Notes: generated from the letters alone by a model not told the origin. DNA of 64,000 nucleotides from Sulfolobales archaeon (GCA_038841535.1 JAWBTQ010000002.1:77463-141462); one strand, 5' to 3'. Numbered from the stretch's first letter, positions 8,876 to 57,386 are shown. Made by a program: numbers and translations.

Positions 8876-10306
8876 TTACGTAAGGGATAGCTTTAGTAGG
8901 AAGTCCGATATCTCGTCAAGACACGATCTCAGCTCTTTCTCGCCTATCGTGTATGGGGACCTAATCCTCCTAGATATAGTAAACTCGACCGAGAGTGGTC
9001 CAGCAGTATCCTTCGGGTTGATCGTTACTATTATGTCTGCTATAGAACTCATAACGCTTGAGAACTCGCTCGTTCCTGTCTCAATAACTATCCCAATAAG
9101 CTTACGGCTCTTTAAATGTAGAAGCAGGTTGATCAGTATATCTTTGTACTCCCTCAACCGCAGATCTCCAGGGGTGACGTCACCTATCGGATTCCCCAAG
9201 AACAGCATGACCATCGGCTTGTAGTGGTCGGCTAGTACTATAGCCTTTTGGTAGAGGTCTTCCGGCAGGTAAGCTGCTGGATTGTAGGCCTCTATTTTAA
9301 TAAACTCACCAAGCACGCTCTCAAGCTTCGAAGGCTTGATCTCGATCCTAAACATATCTTTCATCATTTCTGAGAGCTGATACCAAATGTATGCTGGCGA
9401 GCTCTCGTAGCTTACGATCAAGAGTTTCCCCTTATTATGAAGCGCACTAAGTAGTGCGTATGCTAGAACGTAGTAGTGAAAGTGAAGTCCTGGACTCTTA
9501 ACGTAAACCAGCTCACCTCTATATAAGGGACCTATCCTCCTGTCTATAGTTCTGCACCCCATGGTCTCGAGAGGTCTCTCTAGGGCAGGTGCCGGTATTT
9601 CGCTGAGAGCTGGTGGAGTAAATACTTTGAATCCGAAACCTTCTGTAATTGTGAATACCACCTTAGCTACAGACACGGGGGCACCCCTTGCCTTACGGAC
9701 TTCGAGCTCGCGAAGTAAAAGCCGCCTCACTACCGAGTGTCTAAGGACTATGATTACGTCAGAAACAAACTCTATATCACCTAGCTCTATTCTCTCTTCT
9801 GATAGGGGTATTTCCGCTATGAGAACCACTACTCCACTAATTAATCTAGATAACCCAGTGAAATAGTTCTGAAGGACCGCTCTAGCTTTGATCTCGGAGC
9901 CCAGAGACTTTAGGATAGGAGTTACGGAGTCTACGATTATTACGTTAGGGCTGAATTCTTCTATACTCTTATTTAGTACTTCAATAATGACGCTGCTTAC
10001 AGTATTCTCGGATGCTGTGAGAGGGAGATGTAGAAACTTTAAGTACCCTTTTCTCTCGGCACTCTCTAGGTCAAGCCCTAAGCTCTTCATGTTTTTAAAG
10101 AGTTTTTCTCTATCTTCCTGGACTGATGTATACAGGCACTTATACCCTTTTAACGCGTTATGGTAACAAATGGTAGACGCCAGAGTGGTCTTACCGGAAC
10201 CAGGGTGACCAGCAACTACAACCAGGGTCCCACTGCTTAAAGCACCTCTTAGAAGGGAGTCGAGACCGTCGACACCAAAAGTGTAATTATTCAAACCTTT
10301 ACCCAA
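8876..10306 (-). CDS. KaiC-like / RecA-superfamily ATPase, two-domain
   Basis: FGVDGLDSLLRG...VVVAGHPGSGKTTLAS (Walker A) ...VIIVDS (Walker B-like). The second RecA-like domain has no recognisable P-loop (VKSPGLHFHYYV). The track ORF runs to ATG 10399, but a strong TATA-like TTTATATA (10326-10333, coding strand) lies inside that extension, ~23 nt upstream of TTG 10306 (MGKGLNNYTFGVDGLD). I therefore favour 10306. Confidence 0.75.
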   Translation of the reverse strand: MGKGLNNYTFGVDGLDSLLRGALSSGTLVVVAGHPGSGKTTLASTICYHNALKGYKCLYTSVQEDREKLFKNMKSLGLDLESAERKGYLKFLHLPLTASENTVSSVIIEVLNKSIEEFSPNVIIVDSVTPILKSLGSEIKARAVLQNYFTGLSRLISGVVVLIAEIPLSEERIELGDIEFVSDVIIVLRHSVVRRLLLRELEVRKARGAPVSVAKVVFTITEGFGFKVFTPPALSEIPAPALERPLETMGCRTIDRRIGPLYRGELVYVKSPGLHFHYYVLAYALLSALHNKGKLLIVSYESSPAYIWYQLSEMMKDMFRIEIKPSKLESVLGEFIKIEAYNPAAYLPEDLYQKAIVLADHYKPMVMLFLGNPIGDVTPGDLRLREYKDILINLLLHLKSRKLIGIVIETGTSEFSSVMSSIADIIVTINPKDTAGPLSVEFTISRRIRSPYTIGEKELRSCLDEISDFLLKLSLT

Positions 10307-10325
10307 GAATAATATGGGCAAAGGG

Positions 10326-10333
10326 TATATAAA
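10326..10333 (-). promoter_or_regulatory. TATA-like box upstream of the KaiC-like gene
   Basis: TTTATATA on the coding strand, centred ~23 nt upstream of TTG 10306. The spacing fits an archaeal leaderless promoter. Confidence 0.35.
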
Positions 10334-10817
10334 GCATGTTTGTATATTTTGACCTTTTTCTTGCCTTAAGGACGAGCTATTAGGCATCGATCTCTCCAAT
10401 ATAGACTGCGACCATCATAACATAACCGATGTATTATCTGGGCCCAAGCTCTTAGCCTTTCCATGCTACTTCTCCCTACCCCAATTAATATCTCTCCCGA
10501 TAGTTAAGAGAGCCTGATACAAGCTTGATTAGTTCTTCCTCTAGATCTAGCTCGTTGCATGCTTCTGGATAGTTCAGAGGAAGCCTAGCTTCTTCAATAC
10601 TACTCGAGGGCATAAGCTCCTTGGTGAGTACTACGGACTCGGCAACTCGTTACGCAACTAGAAAAAATGGGCAGTATTGGACATAGTTACGTTCACAGTC
10701 TGGTTTCATTATCATGTCGTTTCCCCAAGCTCTTTAAAAGCGAATAGAGACCAGCTGAAGATAAGATGCTGAAAACGCTATTTATAGTCACGAGACTCGT
10801 TAAGCTAGTCCCACGTT

Positions 10818-25782: not shown

Positions 25783-27690
25783 ATGGTGGAATCTTTGCCA
25801 ATCGGAGGTTATATGGGTAAAGTTCTCAGAGTAGACTTGACAAACCAGAGAGTTATCGACGAGCCACTCCCTCCCGAAGACATCCTGAGGAAGTGGATAG
25901 GCGGTAGAGGTCTAGGGGCTTACTACATACTCAAGGAGGTTGATCCTAAGGTCGACCCACTTAGTCCAGCAAACAAGGCCATCGTAGCTACCGGACCTCT
26001 CACGGGTATAGTGGGGATACCTTCGTCTGGTAGATGGTGCTCCGTAACGAAGTCTCCACTTAACAACACTCTACACGATTCCCAGAGTGGTGGGAAGTTC
26101 GGTCCTGAGCTAAAGTTTGCCGGCTACGACGCAATAATAATTGAGGGTGCGTCTGAGAGGCCTGTGTACCTCTGGATCCATGACGGAAAAGCCGAGCTTA
26201 GGGACGCTAAGCACCTTTGGGGTAGAGATACTCACGACACTACCGACATCATACAGGAAGAACTAGCTCCTGTAGTAGGTAAAGACGAGGCTGCGAGAAT
26301 CAAGGTGGCCTGCATCGGACCTGCGGGCGAGAGACTTGTTAGGATAGCCTGTATAATCAACGACAAGAGTAGGGCCGCCGGTCGAGGAGGACATGGCGCC
26401 GTATGGGGTAGCAAGAAGCTTAAGGCTATAGCAGTAAGAGGACATATGAAGCCCCCCATAGCTAATGAGGCTAAGTTTAGAGAAGTTGTCGTAAAGTCTA
26501 TGGACCTCATAAAAAGGTCGGCGATTACTAGTGAGGCTTTACCGAAGTACGGTACGGCTGTTCTAGTCAACATAATAAACGCTCACGGGATCTACCCAAC
26601 TAGGAACTTCCAGACCGGTGTGTTCCCGACGGCAGATAAGACTAGTGGTGAAACTATTGCTAGAGAAATAATGGACTGGGAGAAGCAGAGGGAAGAGGTT
26701 TGCTGGGGTTGTCCGATTGCGTGCGCTAGATACACTAAGATAACTAAGCCACCATTCACAGGAGAGGGGGGAGGACCGGAGTACGAGACGGTTTGGGCTC
26801 TCGGTGCTCAAACCGGTACAGACGATCTAGCAGCTATATCTAAGGCAAACTATCTGTGCAATGAGCTAGGACTAGACACTATATCTATGGGTCACGTAAT
26901 AGGGACGTTCATGGAGCTTGTTGAAAAAGGGAAGATTCCTCCAGAGAAGCTACGCGGTCTAAGAGCAACATGGGGTAGCGGAGAGGCCTTAATCGAGCTA
27001 ACGTGGAGAACCGCTTACCGTAGCGGCATTGGAGACGACATAGCCGAGGGGGCTCTCAGGCTAGCCCAGAAGTACGGAGCACCCGAGTTAGCTATGGTCG
27101 TTAGAGGCCAGGAGCTACCAGCGTATGATCCGAGAGGTGCGCAAGGCCACGGGCTAGCGTACGCTACGAGTAACAGGGGTGGCTGTCACCTCAGGGCCTA
27201 CATGATCTCTCCTGAGATCTTAGGAGTTCCACAGTTACTCGATAGGTTCGAGACTAAAGGTAAGGCAGGGTGGGTTAAGCACTTCCAGGACGTATTCGCA
27301 ACTATAGATAGCTTAATTGTCTGCAAGTTCGTTACGTTCGCCTATTGGTCGGACGTCATGGCCGAGCAGCTATCAGCGGTAACAGGGTGGGACATAGCCA
27401 AGGAGGAGTTCGAGAAAATAGGTGAGAGAATATACAACGCGGAGAGAGCCTTCAACGTGTTGTCCTTTGAAGATGGAGAGCAGTACGATACACTACCCAA
27501 GAGGCTACTAGAGGAGCCCATGCCTGAGGGACCGGCTAAAGGGCATGTAGTTAGATTGAGCGAAATGCTCCCGGAGTACTACAGCTTGAGAGGTTGGGTA
27601 AGGGGTAGACCGACAAGAGCGAAGCTGGAGGAGCTAGACCTGAAGTGGTTAGCGGATAAGCTATCTGAAGCTAAATTACTCCTAGAGTAA
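25783..27690 (+). CDS. aor: tungsten-containing aldehyde:ferredoxin oxidoreductase
   Basis: 635 aa. GKVLRVDLTNQRV, GPAGERLVRIACI, canonical CWGCPIAC (C-x2-C-x3-C), GGPEYETVWALG, YATSNRGGCHLRAY, LIVCKF. Confidence 0.95.
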   Translation: MVESLPIGGYMGKVLRVDLTNQRVIDEPLPPEDILRKWIGGRGLGAYYILKEVDPKVDPLSPANKAIVATGPLTGIVGIPSSGRWCSVTKSPLNNTLHDSQSGGKFGPELKFAGYDAIIIEGASERPVYLWIHDGKAELRDAKHLWGRDTHDTTDIIQEELAPVVGKDEAARIKVACIGPAGERLVRIACIINDKSRAAGRGGHGAVWGSKKLKAIAVRGHMKPPIANEAKFREVVVKSMDLIKRSAITSEALPKYGTAVLVNIINAHGIYPTRNFQTGVFPTADKTSGETIAREIMDWEKQREEVCWGCPIACARYTKITKPPFTGEGGGPEYETVWALGAQTGTDDLAAISKANYLCNELGLDTISMGHVIGTFMELVEKGKIPPEKLRGLRATWGSGEALIELTWRTAYRSGIGDDIAEGALRLAQKYGAPELAMVVRGQELPAYDPRGAQGHGLAYATSNRGGCHLRAYMISPEILGVPQLLDRFETKGKAGWVKHFQDVFATIDSLIVCKFVTFAYWSDVMAEQLSAVTGWDIAKEEFEKIGERIYNAERAFNVLSFEDGEQYDTLPKRLLEEPMPEGPAKGHVVRLSEMLPEYYSLRGWVRGRPTRAKLEELDLKWLADKLSEAKLLLE

Positions 27691-27704
27691 ACATTAGCTT
27701 AAAC

Positions 27705-27711
27705 TTTTTTT
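27705..27711 (+). terminator. oligo-T tract downstream of aor
   Basis: A T7 run begins 15 nt after the aor stop. Archaeal termination commonly occurs at oligo-T tracts. Confidence 0.3.
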
Positions 27712-28240
27712 ACAGCTCCACACGATTCTTAACTGAGGACCATATTCGTTCTGTTGCGGATCTTCGCGACGACTACGTACTTTAGCCTAGGGAAAGTCTC
27801 GCGTGGATGAGCGCATTAAGCCGTTTAATCCTCAAGAACAAGCCTCGCTCATTACGAGCAAGCTGATTATAATGGTATGACCCCACTAGCTCCCACCCTT
27901 CATTCTCCCTCACTTAGAGGGTGTCTGGAGGGTTCCATAACCATATGTTCTACAGACTTTTAAACCTCTACTTATATACCTTACCTACATCAAGCCGGTA
28001 AGGCGATAATACAGTTCAAAAAGTGTTTCCTTGGATTACCCCCCAAATTAGCTCAGAAGTCGTTTTTAAACTACGAAGACTGGAAGAATGGTGAGTTCCA
28101 CTAGAGATTGATTGTTGGCACCTCGAAGAGCGTTTAATTCTTGGCTAAGGATAGAAAAGACGCAACTGCAGAAAATGATGGGCTCGATCTCCAAGGCAGT
28201 ACGGTATGGGCTCGGCCTCTTCTTATTGGAAGTCAAGTTC

Positions 28241-28256
28241 TTAAAAAGCTTTAAGG
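28241..28256 (+). promoter_or_regulatory. TATA-like box upstream of the HerA-like gene
   Basis: TTAAAAAGCTTTAAGG lies 19-34 nt upstream of ATG 28275. The spacing fits a leaderless or near-leaderless archaeal promoter. Confidence 0.35.
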
Positions 28257-28274
28257 TTAAGAAGCTCTAAAAGT

Positions 28275-29816
28275 ATGGCGAAGGTCTTGAAGCCCATTGG
28301 TGTAGTTGCTAGTGGATCAAAGTCGTTTTACGCCCCCGTATTGGTGTATAAGGACGCTGAGAGGTTTCTTCGTGAGGAGTCTCTTGCGTTTATTAGAGAT
28401 AGAGTAACGGGTAAGCAGTACCTCGGTTTAATAAGGTGGTTATCTAAAATAGACCCCCTCTTGCCTGCGACCCAGAGGTCCGGAGTAGTGGATAACCCTA
28501 GACTTGCGGAAATAGCTACGAACATTCCATTCGAGACCTCATACGTCAGGATCATCGGGGAAATAAGTAGCGGAAGGCTTGAGCCTCCGGTAGACCCACC
28601 AACTCCAAGGAGCGAGGTGTTGCTTGTCGAGTCCCCCGAGGACCTCGCGCTCGAAGTTGGTGAGGGACTGACAATAGGGGAGCACAAGTACTCGGGGGTC
28701 AAGATACCCCTGAACCCCAGGTACCTGCCCTATCACATTGGGGTAGTTGGGGCAACCGGGACCGGCAAGTCGAGGCTTGTGAAGGCCCTCATAGACGAGG
28801 TGCTAGCCAAGACGGATTGGAGAGTGATAGTGTTCGACCACTCCGGGGTAGACTACGTATCTTACTACCCTCACAACGTAGTAGACGCATCCCTAGTAAT
28901 GCCCGACCCCATAACCCTCGGCGAGCTAATATCAGAGAGGTCCATGCTTGAGAGACAGGAAGAGTACATACTGGCAACAGTGTATGCTTACATAGCTTCT
29001 TTCAAGAGAACTTCTGCTACAGCAACAACCCACGGCCCTCAAAGGGTCGATAAAGCTCTTAGCTCATCTGGAACCTCGTTCGCCTGTAGCATGAGATTTA
29101 CCGAGGGCTTAGACTTCACAAATGCCGAGAAGCTTATGACCGAGATAACGTGGGACATACACTTGTTCCGTAAGTGCGTCGAGAGGGTAGGCAAAGAGTT
29201 TGAAGCCAAGGACCCAACCGTAGCTAAGATGAGTTTACTCGTAGGGACCTACTCCAAGGAGCTGATAGAGTCTCTTAACGAAAAGAAGCTCACGGCCCGT
29301 GACGCAGTCGATCGAGCTCTAAGGGAGAGGTTGGTCGTTATTGACTTGAGTAGCGTCGAGATAGTCGTGAGGAGATATATAGTGAAATCCGTTTTAGACG
29401 AGCTGTGGAAACTCGTAGACGAGCGCGGAGAGAGGCCCAGGACGCTGGTGATAGTAGACGAAGCACACAACTACGCCTGCATGGGGTGTGGAGCCTCTTT
29501 ACGTTCGATTGAGAGAACCGCGAGAGAGGGGAGGAAATGGGAGATCGGGTTGGTGCTGGCTAGCCAGAGGACAATCGACTTCTCGACTGACATCAGAAAC
29601 AACATAAACACGTTCTACTTCAGCAGGCTACAGACCCCCGGAGACTTCGAGAATCTTCGGGGAGTCTTAGACTTAGGGGGCTTGGGTCCGGAGTCCCTGT
29701 CAGTTCTCGGAATACGAGAGTTCTTCTTCGCCGGCCTCGGGAATCCTCTAAGATTTCCAATACTCATTCGGGTGAGGGAAGTTGGGGAGCCAACTCTGGG
29801 GGGAAGAGCAGCCTAA
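28275..29816 (+). CDS. HerA-like (DUF87/FtsK-HerA superfamily) ATPase
   Basis: 513 aa. An N-terminal barrel-like region (IGVVASGS...YLGLIRW...YVRIIGEI), Walker A HIGVVGATGTGKS (28749-28772), Walker B TLVIVDEAHNY (from 29445), and LVLASQRTIDF. Confidence 0.8.
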   Translation: MAKVLKPIGVVASGSKSFYAPVLVYKDAERFLREESLAFIRDRVTGKQYLGLIRWLSKIDPLLPATQRSGVVDNPRLAEIATNIPFETSYVRIIGEISSGRLEPPVDPPTPRSEVLLVESPEDLALEVGEGLTIGEHKYSGVKIPLNPRYLPYHIGVVGATGTGKSRLVKALIDEVLAKTDWRVIVFDHSGVDYVSYYPHNVVDASLVMPDPITLGELISERSMLERQEEYILATVYAYIASFKRTSATATTHGPQRVDKALSSSGTSFACSMRFTEGLDFTNAEKLMTEITWDIHLFRKCVERVGKEFEAKDPTVAKMSLLVGTYSKELIESLNEKKLTARDAVDRALRERLVVIDLSSVEIVVRRYIVKSVLDELWKLVDERGERPRTLVIVDEAHNYACMGCGASLRSIERTAREGRKWEIGLVLASQRTIDFSTDIRNNINTFYFSRLQTPGDFENLRGVLDLGGLGPESLSVLGIREFFFAGLGNPLRFPILIRVREVGEPTLGGRAA

Positions 29817-30948
29817 AACGGAGGGAGCCGTTGGTATAGCCCCCGAGCTACTAGGGGAAGCTCTTGACTCCGTAGTTATTAAGATAGATAGAGTCGCCTC
29901 AATAGCTGGGATAGCATCTAGAGCTAGAGAGAGATTGGTCTCGAGCGGTGCCATAAGGAGAGCCACCTACATTGGAGATAAGTGCTTCTTAAGCATAGAC
30001 TCGAGCTATACTTCTCCCCCTCTAGAGCTTGTCGGGGGATATCTCGGCCTCATCTTCGTAGTCAGCGTCCTCTACGGCAAGGAGTGTCGCTCTGCCTTAT
30101 CGGAGTTTGAGGTCGTGGCTCACGCAACGTACGATCCGACTAGGGATTTAACTAGGGTCGAAGCCAGAAGACTCGAGAGGGAGAAAGCCATAGAGGCCCT
30201 AAGGAGGAAGTCTAGAGGGGAAGTCTACTTCGACATCATCATACTCGACGGTGAGGTTCTACCCAGACTGTCGCCAAGGCTCCTCGCTGGAGCTGGCGTA
30301 GAATCAGAGAAAGCTAGAGAGCTAGTGAGACTAACTGACACCATGGTCCTTCTGGCCGAAAAAACTAAAACTCCGGTCGTGGGAGTACTCAAAAGGAGCT
30401 ACTCCAAGGATGCACTAGCAGTGCTCGGGTACTTCCTAGACGTCGACTTAAGCGATAGAGCCTTCATGACGTACGTTTTAGAGCCCGGGGAATTCGCTGT
30501 CATAGGGGACTATAGGTCCATAGCATCTGCTTACCAGAGTCTAGTTGACGACTACGGAGATGCTTACCCTAGAGAGGTTTCGCCTGCTAGGTACAGGCTC
30601 GCTTGGCTAAAGCAGATGCTTAGGTATTCAAACATAGCCGATAGGATGAAAATGGCGTTCTACAGACCCCATTCAGGGATCAGCACTACTGCAGTCAAGA
30701 TAGAGTACGACTCGGTAGACCTAAGTGACGAGGAGCTAGTCTCATCAGTAACGTCTGTGAGCGAGGCGACGGGCTTCCCGGCGCCAGTGGATTACGCCGA
30801 TACCTTATCGCAGATACCGAGTGACGTTAGGTTTACATTGTACCAGCTAGTGCTACAGAAGATAAGTGAAGCTAATCCGGACGTAGCGCAGAAGTTATTT
30901 ACGCTGGTAAACCCGCAGAAACTCGCCTCGATAGGGTTGAGGACGTAG
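29782..30948 (+). CDS. NurA-like nuclease domain protein
   Basis: 388 aa. The ordered acidic motifs FLSIDSS, RRLEREKA, IIILDGEVLPRL and C-terminal PAPVDYADTLSQI follow the NurA pattern. The TTG start overlaps the HerA-like gene by 35 nt, and the start is uncertain. Confidence 0.6.
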   Translation: MGSQLWGEEQPKTEGAVGIAPELLGEALDSVVIKIDRVASIAGIASRARERLVSSGAIRRATYIGDKCFLSIDSSYTSPPLELVGGYLGLIFVVSVLYGKECRSALSEFEVVAHATYDPTRDLTRVEARRLEREKAIEALRRKSRGEVYFDIIILDGEVLPRLSPRLLAGAGVESEKARELVRLTDTMVLLAEKTKTPVVGVLKRSYSKDALAVLGYFLDVDLSDRAFMTYVLEPGEFAVIGDYRSIASAYQSLVDDYGDAYPREVSPARYRLAWLKQMLRYSNIADRMKMAFYRPHSGISTTAVKIEYDSVDLSDEELVSSVTSVSEATGFPAPVDYADTLSQIPSDVRFTLYQLVLQKISEANPDVAQKLFTLVNPQKLASIGLRT

Positions 30949-31578: not shown

Positions 31579-32706
31579 TCAGCACACCCTATAATACCTA
31601 ACCTTTCGCCTTCCCTTGGACTTAAACTCGCTGCACACTTTACCCATCTCCTCCATCGACTCTAGGACCTTATAGATTCCGCGAAGGGAATAAGCGGGAA
31701 AAACCTTCCATACTTCGTACGCCGTAGCCTCCCCACTTCTCTCTAGTACGCGAATTATCTCTTTACGCACATCTTTATCTGCCTTCCTGCTAGCCGAAAG
31801 AGGTCTAAAGCCCATAGTTACGACTGCTATGGAGTTCCCCATGTTTTCGGCTACAGTGTAGGCAGATGCGGATAGAGACTTCGTTTTGACTCCACTTTTC
31901 CAGAGCCTCACCAAGGAGTTAAACGCTTCATCCCTACTTATCTCGACGAGCTTGATCGACCTAGCGAACTCGGGTAGAATGAGGTTCTTCACTCCTTTAA
32001 TCGAGGTAGCCACTACTTCGTAGGATGCGTTTACACCCACATCCTCTAGGTCTCTAAAGCCCTTCCAGATCGAGTAAGCTAGCAATCCTGTCCTCGCTGG
32101 AACAACTACTCTATCTACTCTAAGCCTCCTCTCATATATCTCGAGAGCGATAGTTTTCAGCCCCTCCACAGTGAGAGGGGTTGCGTAGCCTAATAGGGAG
32201 GCCTTCCCATTCTCGCCGAAGACCAGCTTCACATTCCCGGTTCGCAACAGTATGTCTACATCTAAGTAGTCAAGCGATAAAGGATCCTCCACGACTACTT
32301 CGACAGAGGAGACTCCGTTAAGGTAGTAAGCGAGGGAGTAGGTGAAGTCTTCCTCGAACTTCGTTCTAATGGTTACGAATCCCTTTGAGAGTACGTAGCT
32401 CGCTATGACGGAGGAAGCTCTATCAGAGTAAGTGCCTGTGGGATTGTAACGCTCGTTTTTGACTAGCACTCCTCCAACAGTGTTTACTGGAGTCAACCCC
32501 TCTCCCTTCGAGATAACCTTCTCTAATTTAGGTAGCACAGACCTGTATCTCCAAATGCCCGGCCCTGCTCTTTCCACTCTAAACACTCCATACGGGTACT
32601 TGAAGACCGTAAGCCACCCACAACTCGGGCAGGTAAAGACCTCTTCGCTGTACGCTCTTCCACACTTTCCGCAGACCAGCAATTCCTGAGCTACTGCCGT
32701 ACTCAA
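31579..32706 (-). CDS. threonine-synthase-fold (PLP fold type II) protein lacking the PLP lysine, with C-terminal winged HTH
   Basis: 375 aa. Zinc ribbon CGKCG...CPSCG, GIWRYRSVLP, GEGLTPV, and ERYNPTGTYSDR, where the consensus is NPTGSFKDR (Lys to Ser94, codon at 32425-32427). The C-terminal ~65 aa (31582-31779) have a wHTH pattern. It starts 11 nt after the pdxT stop. Confidence 0.75.
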   Translation of the reverse strand: MSTAVAQELLVCGKCGRAYSEEVFTCPSCGWLTVFKYPYGVFRVERAGPGIWRYRSVLPKLEKVISKGEGLTPVNTVGGVLVKNERYNPTGTYSDRASSVIASYVLSKGFVTIRTKFEEDFTYSLAYYLNGVSSVEVVVEDPLSLDYLDVDILLRTGNVKLVFGENGKASLLGYATPLTVEGLKTIALEIYERRLRVDRVVVPARTGLLAYSIWKGFRDLEDVGVNASYEVVATSIKGVKNLILPEFARSIKLVEISRDEAFNSLVRLWKSGVKTKSLSASAYTVAENMGNSIAVVTMGFRPLSASRKADKDVRKEIIRVLERSGEATAYEVWKVFPAYSLRGIYKVLESMEEMGKVCSEFKSKGRRKVRYYRVC

Positions 32707-32717: not shown

Positions 32718-33326
32718 CTACTTCCTCACTAACGAGACCATGTACTCGTACAGTCTTGTGTCTCCTGAGATCTCTGGATGGAACGTTACAGCGAGAACAT
32801 TATTCTGGATAGCCACCGTACCCACTTTACCGATATCTGGGTGGTCGAGATAGCCCACTATCCTCGCATCACCCCAGGCTTCAACTATCGCAGGCGCTCT
32901 TATGAAGACCGCCCTCACAGTGCCTATTCCATCGACGAAGACCTCCGTTTCAAAAGACTCTCTTTGTCGGCCGAAGGCATTTCTTCGTATAGCTATATTC
33001 ATCAACTCGAGGAGAGGTTGCCCTGTCTCGCCAACCACTCTATCTACTACTTTCTTAGCTAGGAGTACTGCCCCAGCGCAAGTCCCCATTACAGGCTTTC
33101 CTTCTCTCGCTAGGTCTGCGATAGCTACGTCCATTCCCGTGACTCTCATTAAACTACCTATGGCGGTAGACTCGCCCCCGGGTATGATCAGAGTATCTAT
33201 ACCTACTAAGTCTCTAGGTGACTTAACCGGTACAGCCCTAACCCCGCTGAGCTCGGAAAGCAACTGCAGGTGCTCTAGGAAGTCTCCCTGGAGGCTCAGC
33301 ACTCCGACTACTACCAAGTTACTCAC
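32718..33326 (-). CDS. pdxT: pyridoxal 5'-phosphate synthase glutaminase subunit
   Basis: 202 aa. [40 protein letters not shown]. Confidence 0.9.
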
Positions 33327-34332
33327 CCCTCACTTGCATGAGCTCCTCCGGCTTCAGCCTCCTCACGTCCATCCCCGTCATTGAGGACCTCTCGGAAACC
33401 ATTTTCTGAGCTTCGGCAACGATCTCCGGGTCGTCGTAATAGGTAGTAGCCAGTACTATAGCTCTAGCCCTAGCCTCCGGGTCTGAGCTCTTGAAGATCC
33501 CAGAGCCCACGAAGACCCCATCGGCCCCCAACCACATCATGAGCGCAGCATCTGCCGGTGTAGCGATGCCTCCAGCAGCAAAGTTTACGACGGGCAGTCT
33601 ACCGAGTCTCGCAGTAAGTAGAACTAGTTCATAGGGAGTCTTGTTCTCCTTCGCGTATACCCAAAGAGCCTCGATGTCTCTCGATGTGTAGTATCCTTTC
33701 AGTGTTGCGATATCTCTATTAACGAGCTTCATGTGCTTTACTGCCTCCGCAACGTTACCCGTACCGGGCTCTCCCTTCGTTCTTATCATAGACGCTCCCT
33801 CAAATATTCTCCTCAGTGCTTCCGGGAGGTTTCTTGCTCCGTTCACGAACGGCACTCTAAACTCCCACTTGTTAATGTGGGCTCTCTCGTCTACTGGAGT
33901 GAGGACCTCGCTCTCATCTATGAGGTCTACACCTACCTCTTCGAGCAGCCTTGCCTCCTCGGTGTGCCCTATTCTGCACTTAGCAGATACGGGTATTGTA
34001 ATAACATCCGTAACTCTCTGAATGACGTCCAACCCAGCCGTTCGGGCAACACCTCCAGATACCCTGACGTCGTAGGGGAGCTTATCGAGGACCATGACAC
34101 CCACAGCACCAGCGTCTTCAGCTATTTCAGCCTGCTTCTCGCTAGTGACATCCATTATTACTCCTCCCTTAAGCATTGACACGAAGCCTAGCTTAACCAG
34201 AGTACCCCCTAACTTAATAAGCGGGAGCGAACCACCCTCCGCAGAAGACCTATCCCTAAGTTCCAGTAGTTGGTATATCAAGTCGCGAAGCTTCTCGATA
34301 AATACGTAAGAGTCAGTGAGCTTCACTTGCAC
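33319..34332 (-). CDS. pdxS: pyridoxal 5'-phosphate synthase lyase subunit
   Basis: 337 aa. [83 protein letters not shown] start; overlaps pdxT by 8 nt. Confidence 0.95.
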
Positions 34333-45561: not shown

Positions 45562-47721
45562 ATGGCGCACACGCATTCTCGGACTAGGGTTTACCCCCTA
45601 GGTTTATGGTATGGAGTCGGCAAAGTTACACCAGTCTTCGATGCGTCTAAAATCCGCGATGACCTGAGGAAGGTCAAGGATCTGGGTGTAGGCTTTGTTA
45701 GACTTTGGGTAAACTGGAGAGATATCGAGCCGAGACCGAGTGCGTACGCATTTGGAGAGTTGAAGGAGGCTATGGACGAGGCCGAGGAGATCGGGCTTTC
45801 CGTAGTAATCCAAGTCTACTTAGAGTTTGGACCAGATTGGCTTCCGAAACTCTACCCCGATGCCGTTTTTATTTCTGAGTCCGACCTAAAGCTGTATCAC
45901 CAAGGTAGCCCAGGAGTTTGCCTAGACCACCCCTCTGTGAGAAGGCATGCTGAGAGGTTTCTTGTGGAGCTAGCTGGGTTCGCAAAGAAGTACAGCAGCC
46001 TATATGCTTGGGACGTATGGAGCGAACCACAGATAGTCCAATGGGTGTTCAGGCTTGGGTTTCCTAAGTCAGTCTACTGCTACTGTGAGCACAGCGTGAA
46101 GAGGTTTAGGGAATGGCTTAAGGAGGTCTACGTAAGTATCGACGCGCTAAACGCGGCATGGCATAGGTCCTTCAATTCGTTTGAGGAGGTTCAGCCACCT
46201 AGGTTTGTAGTCCTTCACTATGCTAAGGAGAACATTGACTGGGTAGAGTTTAACGTCTGGAAGCTCAAGGAGGATCTGCGTTGGAGGGTCGAGACTATCA
46301 AGAAAGTCGACCGGGAGCATCTCGTAGCAAGTCACGCAGCTACGTCGTCAGTTCTATTGAACCCCCTATTTGGGCACCCAGACGACTGGGAAATGTCTAA
46401 AGTCGTAGACGTTTGGGGTACGTCTCTATACCCTAAGCACGCTCACAGAGTCCCTGATCCAGCTGTAGATAGCTTCATTCTAACCTCAGTAAGGTCTTCT
46501 GCTGACGCATGGGGAAAGAGCTTTTGGATAGGGGAACTCCAGGGAGGCCAAGGAGTTGGGGGCCTAAAGATAGCGGACGTAGTACACCCAGAAGACATTA
46601 ACGTATGGTTCTGGCAGTCCGTAGCCCACGGCTCTAAGGGAGCCTTCGTATACCACTCCTATCCAATGATGTGGGGTTACGAGTCTTCGGGATACGGTCT
46701 ACTAGACCCCGCTGGCAATTTAACGAATAGAGCAAGGGCTTTAGCGTCTATATCAAACATAGTGAGAGAGTACGGAGACATGCTTGCAGAAGCTAGACCT
46801 TTGAAAGCTAAGTGCGCACTATTATATAATAAGCACTCGTACAGACTGCTGTGGGTTCTTCAGGAGGAGTCGGCAGCAGCATTCTCTAGGTCTCTCCTGG
46901 GTGTGTACAGAGTTCTATACAAGCATAACGTTCCTGTAGATGTGGTCTCCATAGAGCAGTTCATGAACGACCCGAGTAGCTATGTGCTACTGATGGCTCC
47001 CTTCTCGATAGCTGTTTCCAAAGAATTCTCTGGTGCTCTAGAGAGGTTTGTATCGAGCGGAGGTGTGCTTTTGGCGGATGCTAGATTTGGGTGGTTCAAG
47101 GAGGACGGCTGGATAGACGGAGAGATACCGTGCTACAACCTCTCAAGAGTTCTCGGTGCAAGAGAGAAGTCCTGCAGAAGCTTAACTGAGTCGAAGGCTG
47201 TTATGAGGGTCGTGAACGAGGTAGTCCCAGGGCTCAAGTGTGGCGACATCGTGGGGATGTGGCACTATGCTGAAACCATGGAGTTATTAAGTGAGAACAC
47301 TATCCCTGTAGCTGAAGTAGGTAGTGCAGAAACAGCTCTAACGATTAACAATTACGATAGGGGTTTCGCACTGTGGGTTGGCACATCCATAGGGTTAGCC
47401 TATGAGAACATGCGTGACCTAGGCATAGAGAAGCTTATTAAGGGAGTTGTGGAGCTTGCTGGAATACGTCCACCCGCAATAGTGGATCCAGTAGGTGCTC
47501 TCGAAGTTAGAGTTCTTACTGTGGGAGGAGGAGGCGAGAGACTAGTGGTAATGATAAACCAAGGCTTAGAGGAGGTGAGAGCGAAAATAGCTTTCCCGGA
47601 GGACAAGTGGTTAGAGAAAATAAGAGACATAATAACGGGCAAGTCCTACGTGGTTAGAGGAGGTGAGCTCGAGCTGTCTGTGCCCCCTAGAGGTGTAATC
47701 GTTGGGTACTCAAGGCAGTAG
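45562..47721 (+). CDS. clan GH-A glycoside hydrolase, GH42/GH35-like (beta-galactosidase or exo-beta-glucosaminidase-like)
   Basis: 719 aa. VRLWVNWRDIEPRPSAY, YAWDVWSEPQ (candidate acid/base Glu), FWIGELQGGQG (candidate nucleophile Glu), followed by trimerisation-like and C-terminal beta domains. Confidence 0.75.
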   Translation: MAHTHSRTRVYPLGLWYGVGKVTPVFDASKIRDDLRKVKDLGVGFVRLWVNWRDIEPRPSAYAFGELKEAMDEAEEIGLSVVIQVYLEFGPDWLPKLYPDAVFISESDLKLYHQGSPGVCLDHPSVRRHAERFLVELAGFAKKYSSLYAWDVWSEPQIVQWVFRLGFPKSVYCYCEHSVKRFREWLKEVYVSIDALNAAWHRSFNSFEEVQPPRFVVLHYAKENIDWVEFNVWKLKEDLRWRVETIKKVDREHLVASHAATSSVLLNPLFGHPDDWEMSKVVDVWGTSLYPKHAHRVPDPAVDSFILTSVRSSADAWGKSFWIGELQGGQGVGGLKIADVVHPEDINVWFWQSVAHGSKGAFVYHSYPMMWGYESSGYGLLDPAGNLTNRARALASISNIVREYGDMLAEARPLKAKCALLYNKHSYRLLWVLQEESAAAFSRSLLGVYRVLYKHNVPVDVVSIEQFMNDPSSYVLLMAPFSIAVSKEFSGALERFVSSGGVLLADARFGWFKEDGWIDGEIPCYNLSRVLGAREKSCRSLTESKAVMRVVNEVVPGLKCGDIVGMWHYAETMELLSENTIPVAEVGSAETALTINNYDRGFALWVGTSIGLAYENMRDLGIEKLIKGVVELAGIRPPAIVDPVGALEVRVLTVGGGGERLVVMINQGLEEVRAKIAFPEDKWLEKIRDIITGKSYVVRGGELELSVPPRGVIVGYSRQ

Positions 47722-48508
47722 TGGAGCGAAAATCCGCGACTTGCCCCAGGAGTGGTACGAAAGAGTGCTCGGACTGCTCGACTACATCGCTAAAACCCAG
47801 CGCAAAAATATTGAGAAAGCAGCCGAAATCGTCGCAGACTCTATATTCAAGGGACATGTGTGTTTTCTGTTTGGGTCAGGTCATGCTGCTATACCAGTGA
47901 TGGAGATTTTTCCTAGATATGGGTCGATGGTTGGGTTCGTGCCCATAGTAGACCTCCCTCTAATATCCTTCCTTAGGCTAGTGGGGGATATGGGCTATCC
48001 GCAGTTTGATTGCATAGAGAACTCGCCTGAGTATGGGCGCAGAATAGTTGAGAACTACGAGATTCACAGAGACGACTGCGCCATTGTCTTCTCTCATTCT
48101 GGTACTACGCCCGTCACCTTAGAGGTAGCACTACAGATTAAGAGCAGGGGTTCTAAAGTGATTGGGATAACCTCGGTAGCTCATTCGTTGAGGGCTAGAC
48201 CACGACATCCGTCTGGATTAAAGCTATTCGAGGTTGCTGATGTGGTTATAGATACAGGAGTACCACCGGGAGATGTTTCCATAGAGGTATTTAGCGGGGG
48301 AAAGCCTATCAAAGTAGGACCTCTCTCCACAATAGCGTTCGTGTTCGTAGCTAATTTTGTGCTCTTAAGCACCTATGAGCAATTGCTCAAAGCCGGTTAC
48401 GACCCTATAACGCTGCCAGTTAGAGGTTTCGACTCAGATGCCGACATCCTCATGAGGAAAGCCCTCAGTAAGTACAGAGAGCTATACTCTAAACACATCT
48501 CTAAGTAG
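47702..48508 (+). CDS. SIS (sugar isomerase) domain protein, UPF0309-like
   Basis: 268 aa. IEKAAEIVADSIFKGHVCFLFGSGHAA, AIVFSHSGTTPVTLEVALQIKSRGSKVIGITS, HPSGLKLFEVADVVIDTG. The start is uncertain (TTG 47702 overlaps the upstream gene by 20 nt). Confidence 0.7.
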   Translation: MGTQGSSGAKIRDLPQEWYERVLGLLDYIAKTQRKNIEKAAEIVADSIFKGHVCFLFGSGHAAIPVMEIFPRYGSMVGFVPIVDLPLISFLRLVGDMGYPQFDCIENSPEYGRRIVENYEIHRDDCAIVFSHSGTTPVTLEVALQIKSRGSKVIGITSVAHSLRARPRHPSGLKLFEVADVVIDTGVPPGDVSIEVFSGGKPIKVGPLSTIAFVFVANFVLLSTYEQLLKAGYDPITLPVRGFDSDADILMRKALSKYRELYSKHISK

Positions 48509-48516
48509 GGGATGGA

Positions 48517-49473
48517 ATGGTGTTGCGCAACGTCGTATTGTCAATAGACGTTGGTGGAACTAAGATTGCGTACGCGTTTATCGACTCCGGAGGAGGAGTT
48601 CATGATTACGGTATCGTAAAAACTAGGAGAGCTGGGGGAAGGCAGGTTATCAACCAGCTCAGAGAGATCGTTAGATCCTGTCGCTACAAGAAGGTTGTTG
48701 GCGTGGGGGTGAGCGTGCCAGGCATAGTTAGAAACGGATCGGTTACCTGGGCACCTAACATTAGGGAATGGAGGGACGTCCATTTAGCCGATCTGATAAG
48801 CAGGGATATCCCCGAGGGAGGCCTAATAGAGGTCGTAGACGATAGGACGGCTAGCGCTCTGGGTGAGATGTGGCAGGGGGCGGCAAAGAGTCTATCAAAT
48901 TTCATAGTGCTAGTCATAGGGACGGGAGTCGGTGCCGGCGTAGTTATTGACGGTAGGCCTGTCCATGGCTCAGCTGGTGTTTCGGGAGCTGTAGGTTGGT
49001 GGTTACTATCGCGAAGTCTTCCACATCGGAGTACCCGGAGAGGTTTTCTCGAAGAAGAGATAGGGGGATTAGCTCTCGATAGAATCGCCAGAAGGTACTC
49101 TTCATCAAGAACCTCAACAGGCTCTCCACTTCGCGAGCTATGCGAATTCGTCGATTCGACTTGCTTGTTTAGAGCTTACGACCTTGGGCACGATCTCGCA
49201 AAAAACACCCTAGAAAGGAAAGCAGTATTACTCGGGATCCTCATAGCTAACTTACTGAGCCTGCTTAACCCCGAGGCCGTTATACTAAGTGGTAGCGTCG
49301 GAGTTGAGCTAGGTAAAAGGTTTATGCCGCTCATCAGGAGAGTAGTTGAGGCAGTAGCGCAACCGTACGCCACCAAGAGCTACCGCTTAGAGGTATCAAG
49401 CCTAGGTCACTTGTCCTGCTTATACGGCTCTGCCTACTTCGTATTGAAAAGAATGGGGAGCATAGGTAAGTAA
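48517..49473 (+). CDS. ROK-family (ASKHA) sugar kinase, zinc-motif-less
   Basis: 318 aa. LSIDVGGTKIAYAF, VDDRTASALGE, VIGTGVGAGVVIDGRPVHGSAG. The ROK signature GE[IL]GH...CxCGxxGC is replaced by GAVGWW...HRSTRRGF. Confidence 0.75.
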   Translation: MVLRNVVLSIDVGGTKIAYAFIDSGGGVHDYGIVKTRRAGGRQVINQLREIVRSCRYKKVVGVGVSVPGIVRNGSVTWAPNIREWRDVHLADLISRDIPEGGLIEVVDDRTASALGEMWQGAAKSLSNFIVLVIGTGVGAGVVIDGRPVHGSAGVSGAVGWWLLSRSLPHRSTRRGFLEEEIGGLALDRIARRYSSSRTSTGSPLRELCEFVDSTCLFRAYDLGHDLAKNTLERKAVLLGILIANLLSLLNPEAVILSGSVGVELGKRFMPLIRRVVEAVAQPYATKSYRLEVSSLGHLSCLYGSAYFVLKRMGSIGK

Positions 49474-49482
49474 TAAGACCAC

Positions 49483-49488
49483 TTTTTT
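49483..49488 (+). terminator. oligo-T tract after the ROK kinase gene
   Basis: A T6 run 10 nt after the stop, 29 nt before the GH84 start. It could be a partial terminator or simply part of an A/T-rich promoter. Confidence 0.2.
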
Positions 49489-49516
49489 GTTCTGTTAGTT
49501 TCTAACTCGTGAGACT

Positions 49517-50731
49517 ATGCTGCTTGGAGTAGTTGAGGGGTTCTATGGGCCCGCCTGGGACTGGGTTGAGAGGATTAACATTATGGAGTTTCTGAGTAGG
49601 GTAGGTCTCAATGCCTACATATACGCACCTAAGTGGGATCCTCGTCATAGGGATTGGTGGAGGATTCCATACGAACCTGTCTTTGCTGATAGACTAAGCA
49701 TGCTATTAGACTCGGCTTCTAGGTACGGAATCAGAGTTGTTTTCGCCCTAAGCCCGGGCTTAGACATGGACTACTCGTCAGAGCACGATGTTAGATTGCT
49801 AGTAAAGAAGTTCTCTTGGGTTATGGAGCTGGGGGTTGAAGATTTAGCCGTGTTTTTAGACGATATCCCGCCGGTTCTTAGAGGAAAAGGGTTCAAGACT
49901 CTAGCAGAAGCTCAGTCTTCCTTAGTGAACAAGTTGCTTAGGGAGCTGAGACCTAAGTCGCTGGTGTTCTGCCCTACCTATTACCACAGTCTGCGGGAGG
50001 ACTACATGAGAGAGATAGGCGATCTCGTTGATCCCGAGGTATACATAGTTTGGACTGGTATGTGGGTAGCCTCACACAAAATAGACGTAGGGGACTTAGA
50101 ATCCGTGGCCAAGCTCTTAAAGAGAAAGCCGTTCATATGGGATAACTACCCAGTTAACGACTACTTCACCGTTTACGGAATTACGAGGCTACACCTAGGG
50201 CCCCTAAAGAACAGACCTAAAGAGTTCACCAAATATATCTCCGGCTACGCATCTAACCCCATGAATCAGTATGAAGCATCTAAGATACCTCTATACACTA
50301 TCGCAGAAGCCTTACTAAGTACGTCATACGACCCCGAAAAGAGTTTATCGGACGCTATAGACAGCATACTCAATAAGAACTCTAGGTACTGGTTTAAGAG
50401 GTTTGTGGAGTTTAACCGAGCTAACTTTATGGACTTAACGGAACGTACTATAACTAGAGAAAATGCTGACGAGGTGATCGAGCTAGTCAGAGAACTTCGT
50501 GAATCTATAGGAAACAAGAAGTTGGTTAGAGAAGTTGACTCAGTGTTAAGCAAAATGGAGTCCATAGCCAGGTACTCTAAAAACGAGGTATCCTATCTAA
50601 GCTGGCGAGTTCAGACTGCAGGTGAGTACAGTCCCCCAATAACAGCTGAGAGAATGTTGAAGGAGGTGTTCGGAGTAGTAGCCCGACTCACTCCTTGGTA
50701 CAGTAAGGCCTACGTAAAGCCCGAGGTGTAG
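49517..50731 (+). CDS. GH84-family beta-N-acetylglucosaminidase (O-GlcNAcase/NagJ-like)
   Basis: 404 aa. GVVEGFYGPAW, NAYIYAPKWDPRHR, AVFLDDIPP (catalytic Asp-Asp, codons 49859-49864), CPTYY, VWTGMWV, FIWDNYPVNDY. Near-colinear with the NagJ/OGA catalytic domain. Confidence 0.85.
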   Translation: MLLGVVEGFYGPAWDWVERINIMEFLSRVGLNAYIYAPKWDPRHRDWWRIPYEPVFADRLSMLLDSASRYGIRVVFALSPGLDMDYSSEHDVRLLVKKFSWVMELGVEDLAVFLDDIPPVLRGKGFKTLAEAQSSLVNKLLRELRPKSLVFCPTYYHSLREDYMREIGDLVDPEVYIVWTGMWVASHKIDVGDLESVAKLLKRKPFIWDNYPVNDYFTVYGITRLHLGPLKNRPKEFTKYISGYASNPMNQYEASKIPLYTIAEALLSTSYDPEKSLSDAIDSILNKNSRYWFKRFVEFNRANFMDLTERTITRENADEVIELVRELRESIGNKKLVREVDSVLSKMESIARYSKNEVSYLSWRVQTAGEYSPPITAERMLKEVFGVVARLTPWYSKAYVKPEV

Positions 50732-50734
50732 AAA

Positions 50735-52018
50735 GTGATAATTAGGGCGTATAGGAGAGGTGATGAAGAGGAAGTCGTTGAGCTACTCAAGATGTGCTTT
50801 GATGACTTCAATAGGTGGGGTGTGTCAGCGGAGGACTGGCTTTCGTATGAGGAAGGAGACTACGGCTTTAAGATAGATAACGCTCTTGTTGCTGAAGTCA
50901 GTGGTAGATTGGTAGGACACCTTCACTTAGTGATACGGAATGCGTACATAGGTGAAGGTTCCTTTGATATCTGCGGAATAGCTAATGTTTCAACTCACCC
51001 GGACTTCCGAGGTAGGGGTATAGCTACCGCCCTCGTGAAGAGAGCTATAGAGGTGTGTAGAGAAATGGGTTTACCTGTAGTTTCACTACTTACCGGCTAT
51101 GGAGGTGAGGGGTATCGCGTATATAGGTCCGTGGGTTTTTCGAACACGGCTTTTCTGAGAGCATACGTAGGTGCTCGAGATAGTGTCGAAAAGTTTTTAG
51201 AGAGTTATGGGAAGATCAGGCTAGAAGTTGAAGAAATAGGCTACGGGAACATCGATGAAGTAGCTAAGCTTCACGATACGTTACGGAGGAAAGTAAATCT
51301 TGTCATATCGCGTCCCAGAGACTACTGGGTCAGCAAGGTACTGAAGAGATTCTTTTTCTATAGCTTCTTTTACGATCGCTCCGAGGAAGCTATAAAGCTA
51401 CTCTTCAGAGACTCCTCCGGTCCGGTGGGTTATTCTCTGGCTTTTAGTGGGCAACGCGCCTCGAGGAACTACTGGCAGAAAGATGCAGGAGTAGTACTTG
51501 AAGCTGTAGCTATCAACGAGAAATACTTGAAGAGCGTAATCTCCGAGACCCTAAGGCGACTACTCGATAGTGGGGCGAAGTTGTTCAGGCTCTACGTGCC
51601 ACCATTATACAGGCCTATATTACGCTATAGCTTTGAGGAGTTCAAGGGGGGTTTACTAATGGACTACGTAATCGACTTAAAGAAGCTTCTGAGCAGTATG
51701 AGGGATGAACTCTCGAGGAGAGCAGCTTCCGCAGAGCTTAGGGGCCCTATGGACATCAGCATAAGGAGTCCATATGGATGCGCAAATGTTAATGTAGTTG
51801 ATTCTAATGTGGAGATAAGTAGTTCCTGTAAGTTCGAGAATGAAGTGGAGTTCACCAGAGATGGCATCGTTAAAACTATCTATGGAGTAAGCTCCATAGG
51901 CAAACTAGTAAATAAGGACCAGGTAATGAGAATAAACCTTAGCTCACAAGCTTTTAAAGCAGTAAATGCCCTCTTTCCGGCTAGACCAATATACATCCCA
52001 AGGATGGACCAGTGGTAG
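50735..52018 (+). CDS. GNAT-family N-acetyltransferase, Eis-like multi-domain
   Basis: 427 aa. The N-terminal GNAT core includes HPDFRGRGIATALVKRAIE (Q/RxxGxG/A acetyl-CoA loop). Length and extra C-terminal domains resemble the Eis-type architecture. GTG start 4 nt after the GH84 stop. Confidence 0.65.
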   Translation: MIIRAYRRGDEEEVVELLKMCFDDFNRWGVSAEDWLSYEEGDYGFKIDNALVAEVSGRLVGHLHLVIRNAYIGEGSFDICGIANVSTHPDFRGRGIATALVKRAIEVCREMGLPVVSLLTGYGGEGYRVYRSVGFSNTAFLRAYVGARDSVEKFLESYGKIRLEVEEIGYGNIDEVAKLHDTLRRKVNLVISRPRDYWVSKVLKRFFFYSFFYDRSEEAIKLLFRDSSGPVGYSLAFSGQRASRNYWQKDAGVVLEAVAINEKYLKSVISETLRRLLDSGAKLFRLYVPPLYRPILRYSFEEFKGGLLMDYVIDLKKLLSSMRDELSRRAASAELRGPMDISIRSPYGCANVNVVDSNVEISSSCKFENEVEFTRDGIVKTIYGVSSIGKLVNKDQVMRINLSSQAFKAVNALFPARPIYIPRMDQW

Positions 52019-57384: not shown

Positions 57385-57386
57385 AG

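Follow-up and report, generated by a model that had tools for sequence, protein, structure and literature searches.

Genes and proteins at the locus

The DNA analysed here, hereafter the window, is a stretch of 64,000 nucleotides (nt) from a metagenome-assembled genome (MAG) labelled Sulfolobales archaeon (GCA_038841535.1, JAWBTQ010000002.1:77463-141462), and our subject is a pair of overlapping genes in it that encode a HerA-like ATPase and a NurA-like nuclease. A reading made from the sequence alone (the sequence-only reading) had described a 513-residue HerA-type ATPase whose gene overlaps by 35 nt a 388-residue open reading frame (ORF) with acidic motifs in NurA order, and had noted no adjacent mre11 or rad50. 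The analysis bore this out: the two ORFs lie on the same strand with their motifs where they had been placed (Table 1), Pfam recognizes them above threshold as DUF87 and NurA, and mre11, rad50 and canonical herA were all absent from the 64-kb window. As set out below, the evidence argues for an old, vertically inherited pair that is paralogous to the canonical HerA-NurA machine.

The HerA-like protein matched the HerA central domain (DUF87, PF01935) with an E-value of 2.7e-15 and 57.5 bits against a cutoff of 23.2, and its translation carries the Walker A motif GVVGATGTGKS and the Walker B motif LVIVDEAHNY. An alignment of 12 family sequences showed G159, T161, G162, G164, K165 and S166 of Walker A to be invariant, as were DEAH, the REGRKW motif of the arginine-finger region, and D395 to C402 plus C405. 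This last block includes a family-specific Cys402/Cys405 pair (window 29478-29489) directly after Walker B, where S. solfataricus HerA reads EEAHVFLSK; the Cys-x2-Cys pair might form a disulfide, bind a metal or act as a redox switch. An AlphaFold2 (AF2) model (predicted local distance difference test (pLDDT) 83.6, predicted template modelling score (pTM) 0.83) has an N-terminal barrel (beta-strands, residues 6-117), a RecA-like core and a variable helical insert at residues ~230-340. The top Foldseek matches to this model were the HerAs of T. kodakarensis (Tko; 9x1m_A, 1.6e-23) and S. solfataricus (Sso; 4d2i, 6.9e-23), with template modelling (TM) scores to solved HerAs of 0.6-0.7 over >520 columns, and lower matches included DUF4297-HerA and SIR2-HerA (~1e-19), TdpA (1.5e-15) and Deinococcus HerA (2.4e-15). 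A sequence search of the PDB had placed S. solfataricus HerA (4e-13) and bacterial anti-phage HerAs (6e-13) at about the same distance; structure prediction resolved this equidistance, since the NurA-partnered archaeal HerAs rank first. Judged by its model, the protein is a full HerA, with barrel, RecA core and helical insert, and by analogy with solved HerAs it is predicted to be a hexameric DNA translocase.

The NurA-like protein matched Pfam PF09376 with an E-value of 3.4e-8 and 33.7 bits (gathering score 21) over profile positions 4-252 of 254, relatives scoring 30-91 bits with the same model, and its motifs start at residues 69 (FLSIDSS), 130 (RLEREKA), 152 (IIILDGEV) and 336 (VDYADTLSQI). 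Searches of NCBIfam, of PDB sequences and of PADLOC with this protein gave no match. Its AF2 model (pLDDT 84.1, pTM 0.81) was more informative in Foldseek, where 11 of the 12 PDB matches at E <= 0.001 were to NurA or to the NurA-like TdpB, e.g., Tko NurA (9x1m_G, 7e-10), Sso NurA (2ygk, 1.9e-9), PfuNurA (3taz) and TdpB (8wfd_G, 1.9e-6); Argonaute/SPARTA PIWI and RNase H folds followed in the list. Based on this model the protein is an RNase-H-fold NurA nuclease. Across 62 partners D73, E132, D156-G157, K204, D225, P333 and D340 never vary; R205 and D337 are each conserved in 61 of the 62. D73, E132 and D156 match the PfuNurA residues D51, E105 and D126 by motif order and fold, not by coordinate superposition. 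In PfuNurA these three are catalytic and a fourth metal ligand is His411, for which Thermotoga NurA and Argonaute have an acidic residue (PMC3300031). At the fourth-ligand position the NurA-like protein has no His; it has the acidic pair D337/D340 of PVDYAD. With the D-E-D residues invariant and an acidic pair at the fourth-ligand position, we predict an active nuclease of a DEDD-type variant.

Distribution and inheritance of the family

Among 1.84 billion proteins searched exhaustively, 36 representatives of the HerA-like family were found at E <= 1e-30, beyond which scores fall into the generic HerA continuum, and by this measure the family is a compact, discrete clade. Genome scans found carriers of the Desulfurococcales type (Ignisphaera, Thermogladius, Thermosphaera and Desulfurococcus), among Thermoproteales (Pyrobaculum, Vulcanisaeta, Caldivirga, Thermocladium and Thermoproteus), and in Pyrodictiaceae and Thermofilaceae, with no Sulfolobaceae among the matches listed.

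The NurA-like gene lies directly 3' of the herA-like gene, on the same strand, in 65 of 86 loci, where the spacing ranges mostly from a 41-nt overlap to a gap of a few nt. Most of the non-adjacent loci are contig ends; the genuine ones are those of Vulcanisaeta, of several Pyrodictiaceae and a few divergent arrangements. Neighbour clustering over 78 non-redundant loci, with flanks up to 10 kb, identified no third recurrent gene. The pairwise identities of the two proteins are strongly correlated (r = 0.94; none of 500 Mantel permutations reached this value), the NurA-like protein being the faster evolving (mean identity 30% vs 42% for the HerA-like protein), and both genes are under strong purifying selection, with ratios of nonsynonymous to synonymous substitution (dN/dS) of 0.10-0.12 for the herA-like gene and ~0.10-0.11 for the nurA-like gene.

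HerA-like identity declines with taxonomic distance. The window sequence has matches in hot-spring MAGs labelled 'Sulfolobales archaeon', and the same HerA-like protein sequence was found on 20 contigs, with an identical neighbourhood in all six that were shown. Of 19 flanking genes, 15-19 are kept in relatives with HerA identities as low as 63%, at which synonymous sites are saturated, and at <=50% identity only remnants of synteny are left, namely PdxS/PdxT in one locus (L027) and the gene for a DUF5518 membrane protein in two others (L047 and L052). Searches by tblastn of 72,556 plasmids identified no family member, only ATPase-core matches of ~30% coverage to bacterial DUF87 proteins; 50,697 phage records gave no match, and IMG/VR contained no family member and just two weak partial matches. 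Based on the adjacency, the co-inheritance, the dN/dS values, the gradual decay of synteny and the lack of members on mobile elements, the two genes form a functional chromosomal module that is old and has been passed on vertically.

Two further observations on distribution concern individual MAGs. A few members come from MAGs labelled Woesearchaeota, Undinarchaeota and Njordarchaeota (L071, L076 and L089); in L071 and L076 the NurA gene lies upstream in divergent orientation, and in L089 it adjoins the herA-like gene on the downstream side. This suggests either that genes have occasionally been transferred horizontally from Thermoproteota or that the bins contain errors. In addition, the MAG WAOK01 (Desulfurococcales archaeon S143_70) has two family copies on short contigs (L014 and L017), each ~50% identical to the window HerA, which points to a duplication in this lineage or to a mixed bin.

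A paralogue of the canonical pair

The sequence-only reading had proposed that the pair is paralogous and accessory, and the profile scores agree: the HerA-like protein reached 58.9 bits against the NCBIfam model HerA_Thermprot (NF040937, cutoff 800) and 48.7 bits against the canonical equivalog NF040819 (cutoff 970). Likewise, all family members scored ~50-67 bits against a canonical-type HerA that itself scores 351 bits. Canonical-type representatives were flagged with the help of two fragments of S. solfataricus HerA taken from a PDB alignment; the best of them, P0253, is from Nitrososphaeria, too distant from the window's lineage to be used as bait. No canonical herA-mre11-rad50-nurA operon was found in any family locus examined, and no mre11 or rad50 family recurs in the flanks of the 78 related loci. 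These comparisons support a paralogue distinct from the end-resection HerA/NurA.

A published precedent exists for such a paralogue. Pyrobaculum species have at least three vertically inherited nurA-herA pairs, plus an orphan herA (Bernick et al. 2012, PMC3396285): the canonical PAE2902/2903, whose HerA matches SSO2251 at ~1e-40; the CRISPR-linked nurA-csm6-herA PAE0122/0128; and a third pair of unassigned function, PAE2154/2155. The third pair is tabulated beside the canonical one in six Pyrobaculum species and V. distributa, being unlinked in Vulcanisaeta as Vdis_1272/Vdis_1306 (PMC3396285). Several properties of our family fit this third pair. In the Pyrobaculum loci L073 and L093 the herA and nurA genes are directly adjacent and have no csm6, and their neighbours are housekeeping genes (for riboflavin kinase, an aldolase, geranylgeranyl reductase and radical-SAM proteins); a check of the Pyrobaculum loci L073 and L079, and of L062, showed no CRISPR-type repeats. 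In the Vulcanisaeta loci L065 and L085 the 10 kb around the herA-like gene encode no NurA. Against SsoHerA the P. aerophilum and P. neutrophilum members match at ~1e-6 and the Vulcanisaeta member (Vmou) at 5e-10, a pattern resembling that of Table A2 in PMC3396285 (published values 9e-05 and 5e-12), and the Pfam score of the Pyrobaculum partner NurA (7.8e-26) is intermediate between those published for the CRISPR-linked and the canonical proteins. In P. aerophilum the family protein, P0338, has the accession AAL63988.1 and the annotation 'conserved within P. aerophilum'. By elimination, then, the window's family appears to be the third Thermoproteales pair PAE2154/2155; what is new here is that this type extends from Thermoproteales to Desulfurococcales-type lineages and Pyrodictiaceae.

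Gene coupling and flanking sequence

The herA-like gene is preceded by a gap of 584 nt (27691-28274) that the sequence-only reading had called ORF-free and supplied with its own TATA-like box. The length and the box stand, but the gap contains unconserved ORFs of 52 and 56 residues. Among relatives with 87-89% protein identity, conservation in the gap is confined to its last ~40 nt, which include the A/T-rich box TTAAAAAGCTTTAAGG. The rest of the gap (27691-28235, ~540 nt) is unconserved at this level of identity, with ~200 nt in common with locus L010 alone, and an Rfam search of the gap gave no match; on these two grounds a hidden element was ruled out. Conservation of TTAAAAAGCTTTAAGG 19-34 nt before the ATG fits a promoter belonging to the pair, and we infer that the box is an archaeal B recognition element (BRE)/TATA element from which a leaderless, or nearly leaderless, herA-like transcript is probably made. 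A Shine-Dalgarno-like GGTGAGGG lies inside the end of the herA-like gene, before the TTG of the nurA-like gene, which suggests that translation of the nurA-like gene is coupled to that of the herA-like gene. The small membrane protein predicted downstream is present, a DUF5518 protein; its separate promotion, also claimed, is plausible based on a TATATAA 31-37 nt 5' of its ATG. As this gene is retained in close relatives and in just the two distant loci mentioned above, it lies outside the two-gene module.

Table 1. Features of the herA-like/nurA-like locus, in window coordinates.
Feature	Position	Strand	Remarks
A/T-rich promoter-like box TTAAAAAGCTTTAAGG	28241..28256	+	19-34 nt 5' of herA-like ATG
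herA-like gene	28275..29816	+	ATG start, 513 residues
Walker A GATGTGKS, residues 159-166	28749..28772	+	invariant positions in family alignment
Walker B DEAH, residues 395-398, then NYAC-x2-C	29457..29489	+	family alignment
Shine-Dalgarno-like GGTGAGGG	29771..29778	+	within herA-like 3' end, 4-11 nt 5' of nurA-like TTG
nurA-like gene	29782..30948	+	TTG start, 388 residues
NurA-like Asp73 codon, FLSIDSS	29998..30000	+	62/62 partners
NurA-like Glu132 codon, RLEREKA	30175..30177	+	62/62 partners
NurA-like Asp156-Gly157, IIILDGE	30247..30252	+	62/62 partners
NurA-like acidic pair Asp337 + Asp340, PVDYAD	30790..30801	+	D337 61/62, D340 62/62
DUF5518 membrane protein gene, 112 residues	31030-31368		Pfam scan

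Proposed role and alternative explanations

We favour, with a probability of about 0.62 for the reading as a whole, an ancient chromosomal HerA-NurA machine that is paralogous to the canonical pair, exists alongside it and has a role in genome maintenance. In this proposal the two genes would be transcribed as a unit from their own promoter and translationally coupled; the HerA-like protein would form a hexameric ring that threads double-stranded DNA from a free end by ATP hydrolysis; and the dimeric, RNase-H-fold NurA-like nuclease would cut the strands that the ring delivers. The pair would work without Mre11-Rad50 or any other dedicated partner, and its task would be to process or remove DNA that is linear or broken, by a route distinct from that of Mre11-Rad50. 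The model for these steps is the T. kodakarensis HerA6-NurA2 complex, for which cryo-electron microscopy and biochemistry showed ATP-driven translocation of double-stranded DNA through the HerA ring into the NurA dimer, where both strands are cut (PMC12977600). The conserved fold and motifs, the gene coupling and the co-evolution of the window pair suggest the same 6:2 architecture, loading at DNA ends and ATP-dependent degradation from free ends. Genome maintenance is favoured as the role because inheritance of the pair is core-like.

Several points weigh against this reading. Coexistence with a canonical pair is documented, via PMC3396285, for Pyrobaculum and Vulcanisaeta only, and is presumed for the source MAG and for Desulfurococcales-type carriers in general. 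The assignment to PAE2154/2155 rests on elimination and not on a direct locus-tag match, and the 6:2 stoichiometry and DNA-end loading are taken from the characterized complex by analogy only. The NurA-like protein has diverged far from the solved NurAs (10-15% identity, TM ~0.5), and with Asp instead of His as the fourth ligand its substrate or polarity may differ. Moreover, no neighbour informative about the biological role recurs over the 78 loci.

A more specific idea, which we consider rather doubtful, is that the family is a phylum-wide, fixed surveillance nuclease for free DNA ends that is independent of Mre11-Rad50 and destroys linear DNA, including the genomes of crenarchaeal viruses with linear double-stranded DNA. 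If true, the family would be the functional counterpart, in archaea, of RecBCD in its anti-phage role, and a different mode of regulation or substrate use would be marked by the Asp-for-His active site and by the two Cys residues that follow Walker B.

The sequence-only reading had leaned instead towards defence, or an origin in a plasmid or virus. Defence need not be mobile, and the pair could be a chromosomally fixed innate system, a RecBCD-type killer of linear DNA that degrades both strands of incoming viral or plasmid DNA from their ends. Pairs of HerA with an effector are reported as proven anti-phage systems in PMC11291478 (DUF4297-HerA) and PMC11472057 (SIR2-HerA), the HerA/NurA-type restriction module TdpAB is among the structural matches, and even the canonical Tko HerA-NurA destroys both strands, its authors speculating on an antiviral role (PMC12977600). 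The pair is also self-contained, with a promoter-like box of its own, and PADLOC returned weak matches of its HerA models to the HerA-like protein, including one of 75 bits to 'Type III coevolved'. However, the PADLOC 'mad8' and HerA matches (55-77 bits) were set aside as being at the generic P-loop level, the NurA-like protein had no PADLOC match at all, and the HerA-like protein scored 50.4 bits with the anti-phage HerA model NF042943 (cutoff 800) and 57.7 bits with NF042944 (cutoff 850). The enrichment of the neighbourhood for defence genes that the sequence-only reading had wanted checked did not appear: there is no defence island, the neighbours are metabolic, no cas, defence or integrase gene was found in the window, and synteny is stable. 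Identity follows taxonomy, unlike the usual patchiness of defence genes; the strong purifying selection carries no sign of an arms race; and no component that would tell self from non-self (TdpC, a methylase or Cas) is linked. Based on these observations we regard fixed defence as unlikely, though it is the strongest of the alternatives. ATPases of the FtsK/HerA superfamily are frequent in the plasmids and viruses of archaea, and the Pfam scan yielded weak TrwB/VirB4-type matches for the HerA-like protein, so that the pair might be the remnant of an integrated element. This is extremely improbable given that no member was found on plasmids, phages or IMG/VR contigs, that synteny is conserved over long range, and that no integrase, tRNA, repeat boundary or GC shift was found in the window.

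Two further explanations keep the pair among chromosomal functions. One is that these are the sole, fast-evolving HerA and NurA of the organism, i.e., the housekeeping end-resection machine with mre11-rad50 relocated. The NCBI pipeline does annotate the NurA-like protein as 'DNA double-strand break repair nuclease NurA', no canonical herA was found in the part of this MAG covered by the window, and the canonical genes themselves are not linked to one another in Vulcanisaeta (PMC3396285). Against this stand the 58.9 bits of the HerA-like protein where the canonical equivalog asks for 800, the similarly low scores of all family members against canonical-type HerA, the discreteness of the clade, and the coexistence of the Pyrobaculum family with a separate canonical pair (PMC3396285), and we judge it quite improbable. 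The other is that the pair is accessory to DNA exchange, making or processing single-stranded DNA for Ced/Ted-type import or export. HerA-NurA has been proposed to make single-stranded DNA as a substrate for Ced/Ted, with a HerA-like helicase occurring in Ted loci (Beltran et al. 2023, PMC9905601), and CedD was a recurrent weak NCBIfam match within the family, being the top one (64 bits) for the Pyrobaculum member. Yet no Ced/Ted gene (VirB4/TedB, TedA, pilin or ParA) recurs near the pair, the HerA-like gene linked to Ted is accompanied by Rad50 and ParA and not by NurA (PMC9905601), and CedD has a transmembrane segment and a VirB4-like N-terminal domain (PMC11868833) where the N-terminus of the window protein is a HerA barrel; its CedD score is 47.6 bits (cutoff 600) and its CedB score 22.3 bits (cutoff 700). 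The architecture, the lack of linkage and the sub-cutoff scores led us to reject identity with CedB, CedD or TedB, and a role in DNA exchange is improbable.

The pair is of interest beyond this locus. HerA-NurA is treated as the archaeal end-resection machine, but many hyperthermophilic Thermoproteota keep a second, ancient, constrained and uncharacterised pair, and as PMC12977600 questions resection versus wholesale DNA degradation even for canonical HerA-NurA, this pair is a timely target. With its invariant residues defined and its two genes self-contained, it is also a clean one for genetics and biochemistry. Two cautions apply to annotation: the partner should not be given a name that refers to double-strand break repair, and a stand-alone HerA-effector pair should not automatically be labelled a defence system.

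Surrounding genes

The rest of the window is metabolic or housekeeping in content, with AFOR, ETF/acyl-CoA dehydrogenase, radical-SAM/SPASM, PdxS/PdxT and thiamine genes, ABC transporters and genes for sugar utilisation. No tRNA, structured RNA (Rfam), repeat boundary or tandem array was found in the window, and the guanine-plus-cytosine (GC) content at the pair (0.50) equals that of its immediate neighbours, with no compositional anomaly. An 889-residue ORF at 58674-61343 that was considered as a Rad50 candidate is a GH18-type glycosidase.

Upstream, an AFOR gene (25783-27690) lies within 10 kb of the pair here and also in the distant loci L009, L051, L075, L078 and L083; as AFOR is multi-copy in these archaea, its proximity may be chance. 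Downstream, on the minus strand at 31579-32706, is a gene for a 375-residue protein with an N-terminal CxxC...CxxC zinc-ribbon-like segment, a weak PALP domain and a winged-helix-like C-terminal tail, which may be a pyridoxal-phosphate-related regulator. It adjoins pdxT/pdxS (32718-34332), an arrangement kept in the annotated loci of close relatives (L001-L006 and L008), and homologues of this gene and pdxT/pdxS also occur in L010 and the distant L027. Further away, the region 45562-61343 encodes a GH42 protein, a SIS protein, a ROK kinase, a NAGidase, a GNAT acetyltransferase, a five-gene ABC transporter and the 889-residue GH18/amidase protein, a carbohydrate cluster that is probably for the use of N-acetylglucosamine or chitin-type sugars. 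Two minus-strand genes unrelated to the pair encode a 507-residue KaiC-type ATPase (8876-10399) and a DUF438-hemerythrin-PAS sensor protein (3878-5206).

The context of two related loci is also of note. In Thermogladius calderae (L007, 12862-21500) the genes 3' of the pair include EndoIII/HhH-GPD fragments, SSO2105_N, a 1042-residue SNF2-family helicase and a DUF499 protein of >1200 residues, which could form a repair or defence cluster, the sole such context among the annotated loci. In P. aerophilum (L093) hjc lies at 1993-2394, ~3.6 kb upstream of the pair and on the same strand, with TBP and ProRS beyond it.

Comparison with known systems

Among bacterial systems, SIR2-HerA and DUF4297-HerA are likewise two-gene combinations of a HerA hexamer with an adjacent effector, and their HerAs are structurally similar to the window protein (E ~1e-19). 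Their effectors are SIR2 or a Cap4-like DUF4297 nuclease, whereas that of the window is NurA, and, unlike the bacterial anti-phage systems, the window pair is archaeal, vertically inherited and outside defence islands. TdpABC (An et al. 2025, Nat Chem Biol; 8WET/8WFD), a defence system that senses phosphorothioate and is described from extremophilic bacteria, combines a HerA-like hexamer (TdpA) with a NurA-like protein (TdpB), also without Mre11-Rad50. However, it needs the phosphorothioate-writing TdpC, whose gene is in the cluster, while the window pair has no linked third gene, and TdpA and TdpB are farther from the window proteins than the canonical structures are (1.5e-15 vs 1.6e-23 and 1.9e-6 vs 7e-10, respectively). 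With no tdpC linked to the pair or among the annotated window genes, and with the more distant structures, identity with TdpABC was rejected.

The canonical HerA-NurA proteins (4D2I/2YGK; 9X1L-9X1P; PfuNurA 3TAL) are the best structural matches of both window proteins, and have in common with them the order of barrel, RecA core and helical insert, the D-E-D core, and the arrangement of one herA with one nurA. Unlike the canonical genes, the window pair is not linked to mre11 or rad50; its proteins are 13-20% identical to the canonical ones, the fourth ligand is Asp and not His, and a Cys pair follows Walker B. The CRISPR-linked nurA-csm6-herA of Thermoproteales (Bernick et al. 2012, PMC3396285) is also a non-canonical HerA/NurA pair of the same phylum, but in the window herA precedes nurA, the genes overlap and no csm6 lies between them; the lack of csm6, of a CRISPR array and of cas genes nearby led us to reject this identity.

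The closest counterpart is the third Thermoproteales pair, which shows, as the window pair does, a directly adjacent NurA-like partner, a housekeeping setting without csm6 or CRISPR, and weak similarity to SSO2251. The Pyrobaculum HerAs that we take to represent it (L073 and P0338) are 34-38% identical to the window HerA, the Vulcanisaeta genes are unlinked in both the published pair (Vdis_1272/Vdis_1306) and our family, and the vertical inheritance proposed for the third pair in PMC3396285 is seen here for the window family. At 513 residues the window protein is longer than the third-pair HerA (452 residues) because of a larger variable insert. The window copy comes from a Desulfurococcales-type MAG, a lineage outside the coverage of PMC3396285, and the pair belongs to a paralogue group already noted in 2012, here in a new lineage.

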